Part shown: positions 1 to 24,454 of the stretch, one piece after another
How positions within the stretch are numbered: position 1 is the stretch's first letter
Layout of the letters: each line of letters opens with the position of its first letter
Virus record (IMG/VR): IMGVR_UViG_3300020578_000037
Location: 1-64,000 of that record
Reading direction: 5' to 3' (one strand)
From: a virus
DNA length: 64,000 bases
Made by a program: the position numbers and the translations under genes
Notes under the pieces: model-generated
Database searches by the model: none
What the model was told of the DNA's origin: nothing
The model's input: the letters and a program-made list of their open reading frames with translations, nothing else

Positions 1-120
1 TGTCTTAGTAGGCGTTAAAGTAGGGGTTGTTGTCTTAGTAGGCGTTAAAGTAGGGGTTGTTGTCTTAGTAGGCGTTAAAGTAGGGGTACGTGTTAAAGTA
101 GGCGTTAAAGTCGGTGTTGG
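1..120. repeat. 30-bp tandem repeat TGTCTTAGTAGGCGTTAAAGTAGGGGTTGT (coding, TP linker)
   Basis: Two exact copies at 1-60, a near-complete third copy, then a degenerate one. Confidence 0.9.
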
Positions 121-1701
121 TGTCCTCGTGGTTGTCGGTGAAGGTGTTCGTGTAATTGTTCGTGTTGGGGTATTAGATGGTGTTGGATTCGGTGTAAGGG
201 TTGGCGTTGCCATCGGTGTTTCTGTAGGTGTAGGAGTAACTGTCGGAATTAAAGTATTAGTACGTGTTACAGTAGGCGTTAAGGTAGGTGTCGGAGTAGC
301 AGAAGCATTAGGTGTGGGTGTTAATGTGAGTGTTTGTGTTAAGGTAGGTGTTGAAGTACGTGTTGGTGTTAAGGAGGGCGTAGGTGTTACAGAAGCGTTA
401 GGTGTACCTGTAGGTGTACGTGTCGTTGTAGGCGTAGGTGTTAAAGTAGGTGTGTTAGTAGGTGTACGGGTGTTGGTTCTTGTTGGATCAGGGGTTCTAG
501 TTTGAGTATTAGTGGGTGTTAATGTTCGAGTTGGCGTTCCTGTTGGAGTAAACGAAGGCGTGGGTGTAACAGTTGTTCCGATAGTTGCTGTAGGCGTATT
601 TGTAGGTGTAGCTGTTCTAGTATTAGATGGCGTTGGGAATGGTGTACGCGTAGGTGTCGGTGATGGTGTATTTGTTGGTGTAGGTGTTTGTGATGAGCCT
701 ATTGTTGGTTGGGGTGTTGGTGTTCTTGTAGAAGTCGGGGTATGAGAAGGTGTTCTTGTAGGTGATAATGTGGGTGTAGGCGATACAACAGGGTCCTTAG
801 TAGGTGTAGGTGTGGGTTGTGGTACATCAGGTGTTGTTAAAAACCCTAGTAATAAAGATCCTGTATTATAATACGAAAAGGTATAGTTATCGTCTTCTAC
901 AGTAGAAAGAGTAGCGTTTTGCCCAACAAAAATAATATTAGTACTACTGCTTACATTAATACCGTTACCCGCTGACAAATAACAATTATAATAATTGTTA
1001 GGATCGAAATAATTTTCAAACGGAATACTATGTGTACCATCAATATCTAAAGTAAACGTATTTATATAAGAACCAACTATTAGATAAGAGCTTTCTGTGG
1101 TAAGAGGTATTGTTTGATCATTGCTGTTAATATTAATAATAGGAATATTAGTTTGTGTAATTGTAGGTGTTTGTGTAGGGGTTTCTGTTGGCGTCTGGGT
1201 AGGTGTCTCAGATATTGTAGGTGTTTGTGTAGGTGTTTCAGCGGGTGTATCAGAAATCGTTGGTGTAGGTGTATTTGTAGGTGTCTCAGTCGGTGTTTCA
1301 GCGGGTGTATCAGAAATCGTTGGTGTAGGTGTATTTGTAGGTGTCTCAGTCGGTGTTTCAGTCGGTGTTAAAGATATAGTAGGTGTGTTTGTTGGTGTTA
1401 TAGATATAGTAGGTGTATTACTAGGTGTTATAGATATAGTAGGTGTATTACTAGGTGTTAAAGATATAGTAGGTGTGTTTGTTGGTGTTATAGATATAGT
1501 AGGTGTGTTTGTTGGTGTTACACCTATAATAGAATTTTCTAATTTTAGATAATATGTATTTTCACCCAAACCGTCATCAAGTTTTACTTTTAAATAAAAA
1601 TTTGTTCCGTCAAATGCATAGCTGCTTCCATAAGCACTTAATGAATCAGAAAATGCAGTGCCGCCTGAAAAAATTTGTTGTTTTAAATAATATTCACTCA
1701 T
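1..1701 (-). CDS. Thr/Pro-rich (mucin-like) virion protein, partial (runs off window start; absent from ORF track)
   Basis: Hand translation from ATG at 1701, abutting the upstream stop: MSEYYLKQQIFSGGTAFSDSLSAYGSSYAFDG...[16 protein letters not shown]..., a small globular segment (~840-1150), then TP repeats to the window edge; no stop seen in the stretches read. Confidence 0.85.
   Translation of the reverse strand, partial: MSEYYLKQQIFSGGTAFSDSLSAYGSSYAFDGTNFYLKVKLDDGLGENTYYLKLENSIIGVTPTNTPTISITPTNTPTISLTPSNTPTISITPSNTPTISITPTNTPTISLTPTETPTETPTNTPTPTISDTPAETPTETPTNTPTPTISDTPAETPTQTPTISETPTQTPTETPTQTPTITQTNIPIININSNDQTIPLTTESSYLIVGSYINTFTLDIDGTHSIPFENYFDPNNYYNCYLSAGNGINVSSSTNIIFVGQNATLSTVEDDNYTFSYYNTGSLLLGFLTTPDVPQPTPTPTKDPVVSPTPTLSPTRTPSHTPTSTRTPTPQPTIGSSQTPTPTNTPSPTPTRTPFPTPSNTRTATPTNTPTATIGTTVTPTPSFTPTGTPTRTLTPTNTQTRTPDPTRTNTRTPTNTPTLTPTPTTTRTPTGTPNASVTPTPSLTPTRTSTPTLTQTLTLTPTPNASATPTPTLTPTVTRTNTLIPTVTPTPTETPMATPTLTPNPTPSNTPTRTITRTPSPTTTRTPTPTLTPTLTRTPTLTPTKTTTPTLTPTKTTTPTLTPTKT
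1201..1520. repeat. 60-bp and 30-bp coding tandem repeats (TPTISDTPAETP / TPTISITP units)
   Basis: 60-bp period at ~1230-1360; 30-bp period GGTGTTA(T/A)AGATATAGTAGGTGT at ~1364-1520. Confidence 0.85.
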
Positions 1702-2589
1702 TTAAAAATCCCAAAGTCGTAAAGCACGATTTGCTCCGTTAATATTTACAACCAAAAAGTCACCTGATGCGGTTACACTAGGTAAAGACGTTACATTTGC
1801 ATTTGTAAGTGTGACGTCCGCGGCACTTAAACCACCTATTCCGCTTAATGACGCTCCTACAAAAACTCCATCTGTTCTTAATATACCTACATCGGTTCTA
1901 TATAAATTTGTGTCGTATGAACCGTTACTTATACCAAAAACAATAGCAGTCTCAGAACTGTCTCCTATACGAACATTGCCTCTAAATGTATTAGTGGTCG
2001 TCTTATCTCTGCCTAATGTGCTGTTTCCTATAATAGTAAGATTACCGCGTGCACTAATATTTCCTAAAACAGTAAAAGCTTCGTTAGGTTCATCAACATT
2101 TATACCTACTTTCCCATCTTCGCTAACTACAAATGCTGTAGCACTAGCGGGGTCACCAATGGTTGTTGCATCAAAAAGATAAATACCGCTTAACGAAAAA
2201 ACATTAAATGAATCATCTGCAAAAGACTGACTATTATACCTATTTGTTCCATATGGGTGATTGTTGTAAACGACACTATTAAAATTAATAGGGTTTGCAT
2301 TTTCACCTATTGCAAGAGAGTTTTGCTTGCTATATGTTACTATTCTTGGTGTATCGTAAGACCATACTCTCCACCCTGAAAGACTGTTATTATTATTAGA
2401 TAAAAGAAAATATCTATAACCTTCGTCTAATAAACTTTCGTTTTTTACACCTGCGGGACCTGGTACACCTAAATTTGGCTCTGCATTTTGTAGATTTAAG
2501 AACCCGTAGCGAGAAGAAAGAGCTTCAACTGGTGTTCTTGTTCTGACTTTACCAGTAATGGTTTGAGGTGAGGTACCATATGAAGCCAT
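1702..2589 (-). CDS. Putative tail fibre / virion structural protein
   Basis: 295 aa; DGKVGINVDEPNEAFTVLGNISA motif typical of fibre shafts; structural gene context. Confidence 0.55.
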   Translation of the reverse strand: MASYGTSPQTITGKVRTRTPVEALSSRYGFLNLQNAEPNLGVPGPAGVKNESLLDEGYRYFLLSNNNNSLSGWRVWSYDTPRIVTYSKQNSLAIGENANPINFNSVVYNNHPYGTNRYNSQSFADDSFNVFSLSGIYLFDATTIGDPASATAFVVSEDGKVGINVDEPNEAFTVLGNISARGNLTIIGNSTLGRDKTTTNTFRGNVRIGDSSETAIVFGISNGSYDTNLYRTDVGILRTDGVFVGASLSGIGGLSAADVTLTNANVTSLPSVTASGDFLVVNINGANRALRLWDF

Positions 2590-2591
2590 AA

Positions 2592-22642: not shown

Positions 22643-22648
22643 TAAATT

Positions 22649-22676
22649 ATTTTATTAGATAGTCAGCAAAAATCAA
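22649..22676 (-). promoter_or_regulatory. Sigma70-like promoter TTGATT-N16-TAAAAT, 6 nt before GTG of glycosylation operon
   Basis: Same geometry as the promoters of dUTPase, primase, clamp and SSB. Confidence 0.65.
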
Positions 22677-24454
22677 TAGTAGTAAATCGTTATAGTAACA
22701 CTGACTATAGTACCTGAATCTCTAGGAGTAAAGTCTTCTATATATAATTTCCAAGTACCGTTAATATTTGCTGGTGTAGCATTATTATATACGCCTAAAT
22801 TAGCAACATACGGCCCTGCAGGGCATCCATTTATCAGATCAAAGTCTACCTCACTAGATGCGGTAAATGGTTTAAATGTACCTGCTGAAGTACCATCCCA
22901 TACTTGAGAAGCTAATTGATCGAAGGTAACTGTTATTGGCGTATCTCCTATTCCTTCTCCTGTATTATAAGAAAGCAAAGTAGCAACACCTGCAGGTGAA
23001 ACTAAAAGTATTCCTAAGTCTTCATTATAGCTATGAGTTAAATTATTAAGTGTAACAGTAATATTATATGCATTGCTAGGTACACCAGAGACATTAATAT
23101 TAAGCGGGTAGGGAGTTGCTATACCGAAAGAGGGTATTGCAATACCACCGGTAGATGTAAATGAAAGAGCAGCTTTAGGTGACGGCGTCATAGTAGGTGT
23201 TGCGGTAGGCGTTCTAGTATTTGTCGGTGTAATAGTAGGGGTTCTAGTTACTGTTGGTGTAGAGGTGTTCGTAGGTGTACTCGTACGTGTAGGGCCAGGT
23301 GTTCTAGTCACTGTAGGAGTATTAGTGGGCGTTCTTGTATTTGTTGGTGTGTTAGTTGTTGTTCTTGTCACTGTAGGAGTGTTAGTGGGCGTTCTTGTAG
23401 TAGTAGGTGTGGGTGAAGGTGATCTTGTAAAAGTAGGTGTGTATGTAGGGGTAAAGGTATATGTAGGGGTAACGGATGGAGTTCTAGTGTATGTTGGTGT
23501 ATTTGTTGGTGTTGGTGTGTTTGTAGGTGTCTCAGTAGGTGTACTAGTGTTTGTTGGGGTTATAGAAATTGTAGGGGTTAATGAAATTGTTGGTGTGTTT
23601 GTGGGTGTTTCTGAGGGTGTTAATGAAAGTGTAGGTGTAAGAGACGGTGAAACAGAAATAGTAGGTGTATTAGATGGTGTAGAAGTATTTGTGGGTGTAA
23701 TAGAAGGTGTTGGTGTGGGTGTCAGGAAAAATGCATTAGCGTTAATACTCTTTATAGCTAATACAGCTGCATTAATATCAGTTGGAAAGTTCATGGGACC
23801 AAAGCTATAACCAATAGCAGGAAATACTGTTGGTGATATAGAATAGTTTAATTTATGGTCTACTATATTAATGAACCTATCTTTTATCTTATGATCTATT
23901 ACAACTCTAGTACCTAAATCGGTAATTCTGACTCTAAAAGTTCTAAATGACGGTAATGGTTCTTTAGATGGGTCTACATTAGGAGTGATTGTTTTTGGTA
24001 TTTGCCTGTAAAGCTGAAAGGGTTCTGAAAAAGCAGAACTAGATAATGATTCTGTTCTATATAGGGGGTAGAAATCTTGTGATGTACCGCCTCTTAAAGT
24101 AATAGTGTTAGGTAAGGGCGATGCAAATCCACTTATAGTAGGTGTAAGGTTGGTTGAACCAAACTCACCGGTAGAATCGAAACCTATAGCAAGCTGACAA
24201 TTTTGCGATCCTTGAAAATCTACTGTAGAAGCTCCTGTTAATGCTCTTAACCCTGCTACACCTAGAGCAGGCCCCGGGCCGCCTCCAGCAAGCTCTTTAT
24301 TAGCATCAACAAAAAATAAGCTAAATCCATAATAACCTGATAGAGCATATCCAAAAAAAGCATACTCAAAAGTGACTATAAAATCTTTAGAAGTGTCTAT
24401 GGTTTCATAGAAATATAATACTGATGATTTATCTAATGTAGAGAGTGTATACAT
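22673..24454 (-). CDS. Virion protein: L-type lectin-like domain, Thr/Pro stalk, proprotein-convertase P-domain
   Basis: [30 protein letters not shown]; TP linker; [32 protein letters not shown]. Confidence 0.75.

Follow-up and report, generated by a model that had tools for sequence, protein, structure and literature searches.

Introduction

In protists, mucin-type chains are started with alpha-GlcNAc by glycosyltransferases of family GT60, which are relatives of the GT27 polypeptide GalNAc-transferases without the ricin-like domain (PMC8724618). The mucin-type members of GT60 are described as Mn2+-dependent enzymes acting on Pro-flanked, Thr-rich acceptor tracts, for example KPPTTTTTTTTKPP, and the Trypanosoma cruzi enzyme, whose acceptor is a Pro-flanked Thr tract, is also Mn2+-dependent (PMC3769586). 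Another member, Gnt1, is cytoplasmic and attaches alpha-GlcNAc to hydroxyproline (Hyp) of Skp1, for which residue it is specific (PMC6939170). Here, we describe a GT60-like gene in the first 64 kb (positions 1–64,000, called the window hereafter) of an 84,688-bp (84.7-kb) viral contig of IMG/VR (IMGVR_UViG_3300020578_000037; G+C 0.33; CheckV completeness 39%). This gene heads an operon of four genes lying between two of the four genes of the contig that encode proteins with long Thr/Pro (TP) stalks. We consider it probable that the phage glycosylates these stalks itself, through Thr-linked HexNAc priming by the GT60-like enzyme, extension by HtrL-type domains, and O-methylation and carbamoylation of the sugars.

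In the literature searched, no publication linking GT60 or its Pfam family PF11397 to phage Thr/Pro proteins was found; in a sponge-virome preprint, GT60 appears only as an entry among the CAZy matches of viruses, and the available part of a marine phage proteomics paper contains nothing on phage glycosylation.

Four Phage Proteins With Dense Thr/Pro Stalks

A TP stalk was defined by a 40-residue window with a T+P fraction of at least 0.6, and the definition was applied to the open reading frames (ORFs) of at least 100 aa of the whole 84.7-kb contig. Four minus-strand ORFs contained such stalks, with lengths of 162–439 aa, and no further ORF of this size in the contig passed the T+P test. The four proteins were organized as follows:

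1–1701, minus strand: stalk protein 1, its C-terminus lost at the contig end, no Pfam family; an 81-aa N-terminal part, a TP stalk at aa 82–187 (DNA 1141–1458), a 100-aa middle domain and a second TP stalk at aa 288–567+ (DNA 1–840), open at the contig end
7240–8925, minus strand: stalk protein 2; 14 aa, a 439-aa TP stalk at aa 15–453 (DNA 7567–8883) and a 108-aa C-terminal domain of no known family
13936–16407, minus strand: stalk protein 3; a 232-aa N-terminal domain, a TP stalk at aa 233–467 (DNA 15007–15711) and an RCC1-like beta-propeller as C-terminal head (PF25390, 3.6e-45; PF00415, 2.6e-31)
22673–24454, minus strand: stalk protein 4; a lectin-fold domain at aa 1–271, a TP stalk at aa 272–433 (DNA 23156–23641) and a proprotein-convertase P-domain as C-terminal head (P_proprotein, 1.1e-8)

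The stalks contained Thr (0.39–0.44, about 0.42 overall) and Pro (0.20–0.24, about 0.22 overall) at fractions far above the 0.063 and 0.039 of the remaining long ORFs of the contig. Together they amounted to 1,222 residues, of which 516 were Thr, 265 Pro and 77 Ser, and Pro stood at position -1, +1 or +3 of 457 of the 516 Thr residues. The most frequent unit was TPTNTP. When the DNA was searched for the motif encoding TPTxTPT, 55 matches were obtained on the minus strand and none on the plus strand, all 55 within the four stalk genes, and the reversed-pattern control gave 0 and 1 matches in the contig.

The N-terminal 271 aa of stalk protein 4 were predicted to adopt the beta-sandwich fold of L-type lectins (model pLDDT 84.6), and Foldseek matched this model to ERGIC-53, VIP36 and legume lectins (E 3.5e-6 to 1e-4, TM about 0.5). 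For the small domains that stalk proteins 1, 2 and 3 have outside their stalks, Pfam yielded nothing usable at E up to 1. Orthologues of stalk protein 4 (L003–L052) measured 480–930 aa and carried one or two TP stalks of 53–343 aa, sometimes with an extra domain between them; stalk length thus evolves fast. The initial annotation, which had been made from the sequence of the window, had proposed four proteins with stalks of about 180–420 aa and with lectin, RCC1 and P-domain tips. The four ORFs were found where it had placed them and their stalk lengths had to be corrected to 162–439 aa, while the tips were recovered by Pfam (RCC1 and P-domain) and at the level of the fold (lectin).

A Soluble GT60-Like Enzyme and Its Operon

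Directly after the gene of stalk protein 4 came four enzyme genes:

21308–22642, minus strand: GT60-like soluble glycosyltransferase, 444 aa (PF11397 “GlcNAc,” 5.2e-74, 250.3 bits against a cut-off of 21)
20420–21295, minus strand: HtrL_YibB-like protein, putative nucleotide-sugar transferase (PF09612, 1.2e-6)
18849–20423, minus strand: NodU/CmcH-type carbamoyltransferase (Carbam_trans_C, 9.6e-63; Carbam_trans_N, 2.3e-24)
16441–18846, minus strand: FkbM-HtrL fusion, with FkbM at aa 27–207 (6.8e-15) and HtrL_YibB at aa 246–495 (2.5e-11)

The gene of stalk protein 3 followed. The spacing was 30 bp after the gene of stalk protein 4, 12, -4 and 2 bp within the operon, and 33 bp before the gene of stalk protein 3, so that the coordinates bear out the packed operon exactly between two stalk genes that had been annotated initially.

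The GT60-like enzyme also matched phrog_24687 at 1.4e-159. In an alignment of 18 sequences (homologues of 40–85% identity), residues D117-S118-H119 and H254 were invariant; DSH corresponds to a putative metal motif of the DxH type with a downstream His, located within the predicted GT-A fold. The AlphaFold model (pLDDT 87.5, pTM 0.83) was compared with the PDB by Foldseek, and ranks 1–13 were all occupied by polypeptide GalNAc-transferase (GT27) chains, with E values from 1.6e-9 to 7.6e-9. The closest structures were human GalNAc-T4, T2 and T1 and Toxoplasma GalNAc-T3 (identity 11–16%), with TM-scores of about 0.44, which limit the match to the GT-A core. The kinship with polypeptide GalNAc-transferases suggested by the initial annotation was therefore recovered as a fold-level match with E of about 1e-9. 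Searching the PDB by sequence with the GT60-like protein gave nothing at E 0.01, and a profile search at E up to 1 returned a single short match at chance level (0.17); hence, the assignment to the family rests on Pfam and on the fold.

The N-terminal 26 aa or so of the enzyme were Lys/Ser-rich and disordered, and its highest 19-residue Kyte-Doolittle mean was 0.75, too low for a type II membrane anchor. Membrane and signal segments were not detected in any of the four enzymes and four stalk proteins (top 19-residue mean 1.33), in agreement with the lack of signal peptides and the cytoplasmic chemistry proposed earlier. Phage assembly, too, is cytoplasmic, and a modification of these proteins would accordingly take place in that compartment, as it does for Gnt1. 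The C-terminal 120 aa or so of the enzyme (aa 320–444; DNA 21308–21680) formed a beta-rich part that was modeled with high confidence, lay outside PF11397 and was conserved in phage homologues. This part occupies the place of the ricin-type lectin domain of GT27 enzymes, and it could be an acceptor-binding module.

Matches at E ≤ 1e-5 were obtained for at least 6,972 metagenomic proteins, and at least 573 relatives were located in bacterial genomes, on contigs that represented many phyla and included megabase chromosomes. The GT60 family extends beyond eukaryotes and is widespread in bacteria.

The solubility of the enzyme, which it shares with Gnt1, raised the alternative of a hydroxyproline linkage, in which, following the scheme of the Skp1 pathway, a prolyl hydroxylase would make Hyp in the stalks and GlcNAc would be attached to it by the Gnt1-like enzyme. 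The Hyp specificity of Gnt1, itself a cytoplasmic GT60 member (PMC6939170), and the 265 Pro residues of the stalks are also consistent with this alternative. Nevertheless, Thr was the commonest stalk residue, about twice as frequent as Pro; no prolyl-hydroxylase-type gene of family PF13640 was detected in the contig (39% complete), and only one of the five complete GT60-positive genomes searched contained one. Because of this scarcity of PF13640, the Hyp-linked variant is less likely than the Thr-linked one, and we regard it as improbable.

The Tailoring Enzymes and Their Distribution

Both domains of the carbamoyltransferase were detected, the match of its N-domain beginning only at profile position 118. 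The FkbM match of the fusion protein spanned positions 2–173 of the 173 of the profile Methyltransf_21 and was thus full length. HtrL_YibB is a Pfam family without known activity; the nearest Atlas clusters of the HtrL-like protein were mostly viral and bore the automatic name nucleotide-diphospho-sugar transferase, which we take as a lead only, and the Atlas HtrL-like clusters were most frequent in Nucleocytoviricota. The C-terminal tail of the fusion (about 290 aa, DNA 16444–17304) gave weak GT-A-like signals (TAGT 0.008, GT2 0.061, phrog_842 8.1e-5). It had no counterpart in most relatives, which were proteins of 545–575 aa, and was retained in L050 (830 aa). As to the identities first given to the operon products, all four families were recovered by Pfam, but the GT-A tail produced only weak, mostly sub-threshold matches.

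The surroundings of the enzyme were compared at 67 loci, namely 65 IMG/VR loci with a GT60 homologue (39–85% identity) and two loci of Xanthomonas jumbo phages. The FkbM-HtrL part accompanied GT60 in 53 of them. A carbamoyltransferase homologue adjoined GT60 in only eight, those of the phages XacN1 and Xoo-sp13 included, which makes carbamoylation an optional decoration rather than a core step. The capping by carbamoylation expected from the initial annotation has a candidate enzyme in the window, as an occasional accessory. At loci of the L056 type, the FkbM/HtrL/carbamoyltransferase set was replaced by other genes; in L056 (11212–14640), the one locus of its type scanned with Pfam and from a phage group without further detectable similarity to the window, two unknown genes came after GT60, and then a GT25 gene, a GT11 gene (fucosyltransferase family) and a gene for an FG-GAP protein. 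These arrangements suggest a picture in which the cassette combines a constant GT60 initiator with lineage-specific extending and capping enzymes. Two tandem GT60-like paralogues, 50–61% identical to the enzyme of the window, were present in L034 (8775–11263) and in L050 (1048–3658).

One sequence before the GT60 gene resembled a promoter:

22649–22676, minus strand: promoter-like TTGATT-N16-TAAAAT, its end lying 6 nt ahead of the GTG codon that starts the GT60 gene

This site is a match to the consensus only and would leave the gene almost leaderless. Promoter-like sites were no commoner in the region than in shuffled sequences (40 versus 54.1), so that no claim on the timing of expression is made. 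This result bears on the idea that the GT60-like enzyme modifies host proteins for takeover, in the manner of glycosylating bacterial toxins. Its cytoplasmic location would suit such a role; however, the promoter match was not above chance, and takeover leaves unexplained both the partnership with glycan-tailoring enzymes in 53 of the 67 loci and the TP stalks. We consider this idea very improbable.

Occurrence of GT60 and Thr/Pro Stalks in Viral Records

The flanks of 32 of the 65 IMG/VR GT60 loci contained TP segments reaching 60 aa or more, and several of these 32 loci shared no other detectable gene with the window. In L056, L058 and L063 the TP proteins directly preceded GT60, and in L042 the stalk genes lay 1.6 kb downstream of GT60 on the opposite strand. 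When whole records were searched, the TPTxTPT motif was present in 43 of 57 GT60-positive records (nine of nine, and 34 of a further 48, the latter being GT60 loci not searched earlier). As a random control, 31 of 80 listed random IMG/VR loci were used, on contigs of at least 26 kb sampled by an arbitrary 14-mer. PF11397 was detected in one of these 31 records and the motif in two, one with a single match and the other a low-complexity record in which the reversed control was also positive. Among the records that were at least 60% complete, the motif occurred in 14 of 15 with PF11397 and in none of 21 without it (Fisher P 4e-9), the single PF11397-positive record without the motif being the random record G059.

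The association was also observed in the reverse direction, in 48 of 80 listed loci selected by a TP pattern, mostly on contigs of at least about 27 kb. PF11397 was present in 17 of these 48 records, versus one of the 31 random records (P 7e-4).

Comparisons Within Lineages, in Cultured Phages and in Bacteria

Two lineages allowed matched comparisons. The first comprised 13 records outside the GT60 list with a tail sheath 50–70% identical to that of the window. Neither GT60 nor the TPTxTPT motif was detected in the two complete relatives among them (229.7 and 209.3 kb; sheath 50–54% identical); one fragment contained both, and two fragments (15% and 35% complete) contained the motif without GT60. 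A homologue of the lectin domain of stalk protein 4 (E about 1e-31) was encoded in three GT60-free and motif-free records, G137, which is complete, and G138 and G139, which are 48–50% complete. In the two lectin-homologue records that were read, a complete genome and a 50% fragment (L385, 223–2184; L386, 1498–3453), the lectin domain was joined straight to a C-terminal globular region some 420 aa long, and a TP stalk was lacking.

The second comparison concerned cultured phages, in which the GT60 enzyme was rare (four of 50,697 phage records). The number of TPTxTPT matches was 51 in XacN1, 51 in Xoo-sp13 and 22 in CM1, and 0 in each of the GT60-free phages Atu_ph07, SCTP-2, RaK2 and T4; RAS14 was left out of this comparison. 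According to the XacN1 study, Atu_ph07 and SCTP-2 form one monophyletic group with XacN1 and Rak2-like phages (PMC5852040); RaK2 is itself of the Rak2-like kind. The co-occurrence across related phages that the initial annotation had offered as a check of its proposal was thus observed, in 14 of 15 versus none of 21 records that were at least 60% complete, and in three of three versus none of four cultured phages.

The XacN1 stalks were found in the paralogous ORF232–237, in ORF369, 370 and 372 (three of the four large genes adjoining the tail sheath) and in the giant ORF384. Its ORF334, 44% identical to the GT60-like enzyme of the window, is the first gene of a conserved cluster in which the carbamoyltransferase, the HtrL-like protein and the FkbM-HtrL fusion all have homologues. 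At least two virion glycoproteins have been detected in XacN1, which lends indirect experimental support to the present proposal, and phage glycosyltransferases were proposed as their makers (Yoshikawa et al., 2018, PMC5852040, part available). In that part, ORF334 is listed simply as a glycosyltransferase, and GT60 and TP stalks are not mentioned.

Among 80 bacterial GT60-like loci, 24 had a TP segment in the flank, and in 11 of these 24 the segment lay no more than 1 kb from the GT60-like gene, versus an expectation of 3.4 (P about 1.5e-4). At L431, L436, L441 and L471, the TP-rich ORFs that neighbour the bacterial GT60-like genes were often short, with 173–379 aa, and some started with apparent signal or lipoprotein signal peptides (e.g., LAGC before the TP tract). 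Such starts, if genuine, would imply either glycosylation before export or another topology.

Genomic Context of the Locus

The virus of the window is an uncultured T4-like myovirus of lake origin. The features considered were:

2963–7189, minus strand: tail-fibre-like protein, 1,408 aa (phrog_5342 tail fiber, 2.4e-76, and 11 more PHROG families)
24456–32925, minus strand: two large proteins of 1,046 and 1,154 aa, of no known family, and a baseplate wedge
31069–32925, minus strand: baseplate wedge subunit (phrog_219, 1.6e-43)
41258–43333: tape-measure-like protein (PHROG)
47291–49582: tail sheath (PHROG)
50251–51963: large terminase (PHROG)
62578–63900: DnaB-like helicase (PHROG)

Every gene of positions 1–27596 was on the minus strand, and no tRNA genes were found within the window. 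The giant phage fibre families matched the protein encoded at 2963–7189 in up to five separate stretches each, which suggests internal repeats. A complete relative of 217 kb (L020, also listed as G102; 100% complete) keeps the gene order around the stalk and operon region, so that the phage is probably a jumbo phage. From the adjoining genes of 24456–32925, the stalk and operon region can be placed in a baseplate/fibre module, and the four stalk proteins, lying between the tail-fibre-like gene and the baseplate wedge, would be virion components.

Evidence Against Stalk Glycosylation, and Possible Alternative Targets

Several observations weighed against the glycosylation of the stalks by the phage. 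The virion location of the stalk proteins is deduced from gene position only, and the glycoproteins of XacN1 are not named in the main text of PMC5852040, in the part available. A flanking TP segment was found at only 32 of the 65 IMG/VR GT60 loci, and no motif was present in 14 of the 57 GT60-positive records, all 14 being fragments that were 7–52% complete. Several complete GT60-positive genomes had their stalk genes tens of kb from the enzyme gene; for example, the motif matches of G001 were at 56–130 kb and its GT60 locus at 176.9–198.1 kb. The random record G059 (L274, 80 kb, 73% complete) had four PF11397-like ORFs and no TPTxTPT motif, as would be expected of a different use of the PF11397 family or of a different acceptor. 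These four ORFs were distant members (20–65 bits) located at 29–51 kb. Moreover, the counts of records are not phylogenetically independent, and several records are near-duplicates; the case for independent lineages draws only on the gene context and on the two comparisons matched by lineage.

In the opposite sense, six of the nine TP-selected records that were at least 90% complete had no PF11397. Two of these six were chance matches in high-G+C DNA and the other four had real TP/SP stalks of 102–385 aa. These four complete stalk-bearing genomes gave no match to PF11397, to PF00535 (GT2) or to PF09612 (HtrL), the last of these blanks being weak, since the PF09612 search gave no match in any of 14 control genomes. 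Stalks therefore do not need a GT60-like enzyme, and in such genomes either the sugar is unneeded or other enzymes serve.

These genomes lead to an alternative explanation, namely that TP stalks are plain, unglycosylated linkers, that the operon targets other phage proteins (capsid or tail tube) or the lipopolysaccharide (LPS) or capsule glycans of the host, and that the co-occurrence reflects common ancestry and habitat. The distance between the stalk genes and the GT60 gene in many GT60-positive genomes, such as G001, would be expected if so. A host glycan as target is also suggested by the HtrL_YibB family, which is named for a gene of the Escherichia coli LPS-core region, and by the GT25 and GT11 genes of the L056-type cluster, known from LPS and fucosylation work according to their Pfam descriptions. 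However, stalks and GT60 were present together and absent together in two separate lineages, complete genomes included, their adjacency recurred in contexts without any other detectable common gene, and TP segments were concentrated within 1 kb of bacterial GT60-like genes. In addition, the known substrates of GT60 and GT27 enzymes are Thr/Pro-rich polypeptides (PMC8724618 and PMC3769586). We consider plain linkers unlikely, and glycosylation of the stalks by the phage itself remains the preferred reading.

Two further adverse points concerned DNA: the XacN1 cluster adjoins genes for DNA polymerase and RNase H, and the C-terminal tail of the fusion protein weakly resembles DNA glycosyltransferases, with a match to the TET-associated glycosyltransferase TAGT (0.008, below the cut-off) and one to phrog_842, the beta-glucosyl-HMC alpha-glucosyltransferase (8.1e-5). 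The operon might accordingly be thought to glycosylate phage DNA at a hypermodified base against restriction, the stalks being unrelated to it. Nevertheless, the matches of the tail span some 40–57 residues, two of the three are sub-threshold and the tail is missing from most relatives. We know of no GT60 member that acts on DNA. In the window and in loci of the L021 and L034 types, the cluster sits among tail and baseplate genes, and a DNA target would leave the link of GT60 with TP-rich ORFs of phages and bacteria unexplained. A DNA target is, in our judgment, very improbable.

Discussion

The enzyme family, the acceptor-like character of the stalks and the coupled presence and absence of both are well supported, and the glycosylation chemistry is put forward as a proposal. 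The genes present, the composition of the stalks, the kinship of the fold and the co-occurrence were observed; we infer the acceptor, the sugar, the order of the steps and the physical effect. In the proposed mechanism, the phage would make a soluble polypeptide HexNAc-transferase of GT60 type in the host cytoplasm, which would most likely transfer alpha-GlcNAc and use UDP-GlcNAc and Mn2+. This enzyme would place the first sugar on the many Thr residues in the stalks of the phage's own baseplate or fibre proteins, while these are being assembled or earlier. Extension of the glycan might then fall to the HtrL-like domains and the weak GT-A tail, and the FkbM methyltransferase, together with the carbamoyltransferase in the phage of the window, would decorate the sugars. 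The product would be mucin-like extended spacers holding out the lectin, RCC1-propeller and P-domain heads; by analogy with mucins in general, such spacers may be stiff, protease-resistant bottle brushes.

A wider reading is possible, if short of probable: a very large and as yet undescribed prokaryotic branch of GT60, with its at least 6,972 metagenomic proteins, common in lake and ocean T4-like and jumbo phages and spread over many bacterial phyla, may carry out cytoplasmic mucin-type O-glycosylation of Thr/Pro stalks. Many environmental phages would then bear a fibre “glycocalyx” made by a modular cassette, in which a GT60 initiator is combined with lineage-specific extenders and cappers, and the mucin-initiating enzymes of eukaryotes would have a prokaryotic or viral sister system.

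If the proposal for the phage of the window is correct, the receptor-binding appendages of widespread large aquatic phages would be mucin-like glycoproteins made by phage enzymes, and current views of how stiff and protease-resistant phage fibres are, and of host recognition and serology in phages, would change. Glycobiology would gain a soluble enzyme of the bacterial cytoplasm for dense Thr glycosylation. The question of glycosylation is directly testable, since the GT60 enzyme is encoded by three or four phages in culture, namely XacN1, Xoo-sp13, Stenotrophomonas CM1 and RAS14; for XacN1, virion glycoproteins and public proteomic data (ProteomeXchange PXD008065) already exist.

Comparison With Known Systems

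The closest known counterparts of the phage enzyme are the protist GT60 alpha-GlcNAc-transferases (of T. cruzi, the Dictyostelium Golgi and Gnt1), which belong to the same PF11397 family and keep the DxH-type motif. Distinctive of the phage enzyme are its Lys/Ser-rich N-terminus and, at the C-terminus, some 120 extra aa of beta-rich structure. It is soluble, as is Gnt1, whereas the Golgi GT60 enzymes have a membrane anchor, which is absent from the phage protein. Enzymes of this type are also encoded by many bacteria besides the phage, and the activity, sugar and acceptor of the phage enzyme are predictions only. The Skp1/Gnt1 pathway needs a prolyl 4-hydroxylase as partner, whereas the contig, at 39% completeness, contained no PF13640 gene. 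The GT27 GalNAc-transferases provided the best structural matches and follow the same logic of an initiating transferase acting on dense Thr/Pro repeats. However, they act in the Golgi lumen, whereas the phage enzyme would work in the bacterial cytoplasm, and the identity is 11–16%.

Among phages, XacN1 resembles the window in having a homologous cluster together with many TP-stalk proteins; its cluster lies by replication genes, whereas the operon of the window lies within the baseplate module. In mycobacteriophages, phage glycosyltransferases reportedly put glycans on the virion proteins of the phage itself, as Freeman and colleagues are said to have found in 2023 (cited in PMC12619734). There, the glycans are reportedly located at the C-termini of capsid and tail-tube subunits, whereas the acceptors proposed here are fibre-like stalks of several hundred residues, and the proposed initiating enzyme belongs to GT60.

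In Gram-positive bacteria, the long Ser/Thr-rich stalk of serine-rich-repeat adhesins is primed with GlcNAc by the cytoplasmic GtfA/GtfB, and neighbouring transferases extend the chain. The likeness of GtfA/GtfB to the system of the window is functional only: those stalks are Ser-rich, the enzymes have a GT-B fold and export follows the accessory Sec route, whereas the window combines Thr/Pro stalks with a GT-A, GT60-like enzyme. Chloroviruses and mimivirus have their own cytoplasmic glycosylation machinery for capsid or fibril proteins (cited in PMC5852040), but they are viruses of eukaryotes with different acceptor proteins and initiating enzymes. Dense Thr/Ser/Pro tandem repeats, as in the acceptor domains of the mucin-type class, make up the 1,222 residues of the stalks. 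Virion glycosylation encoded by viruses is already known, and a GT60 initiator acting on Thr/Pro stalks would, as we think fairly probable, be a new form of it.

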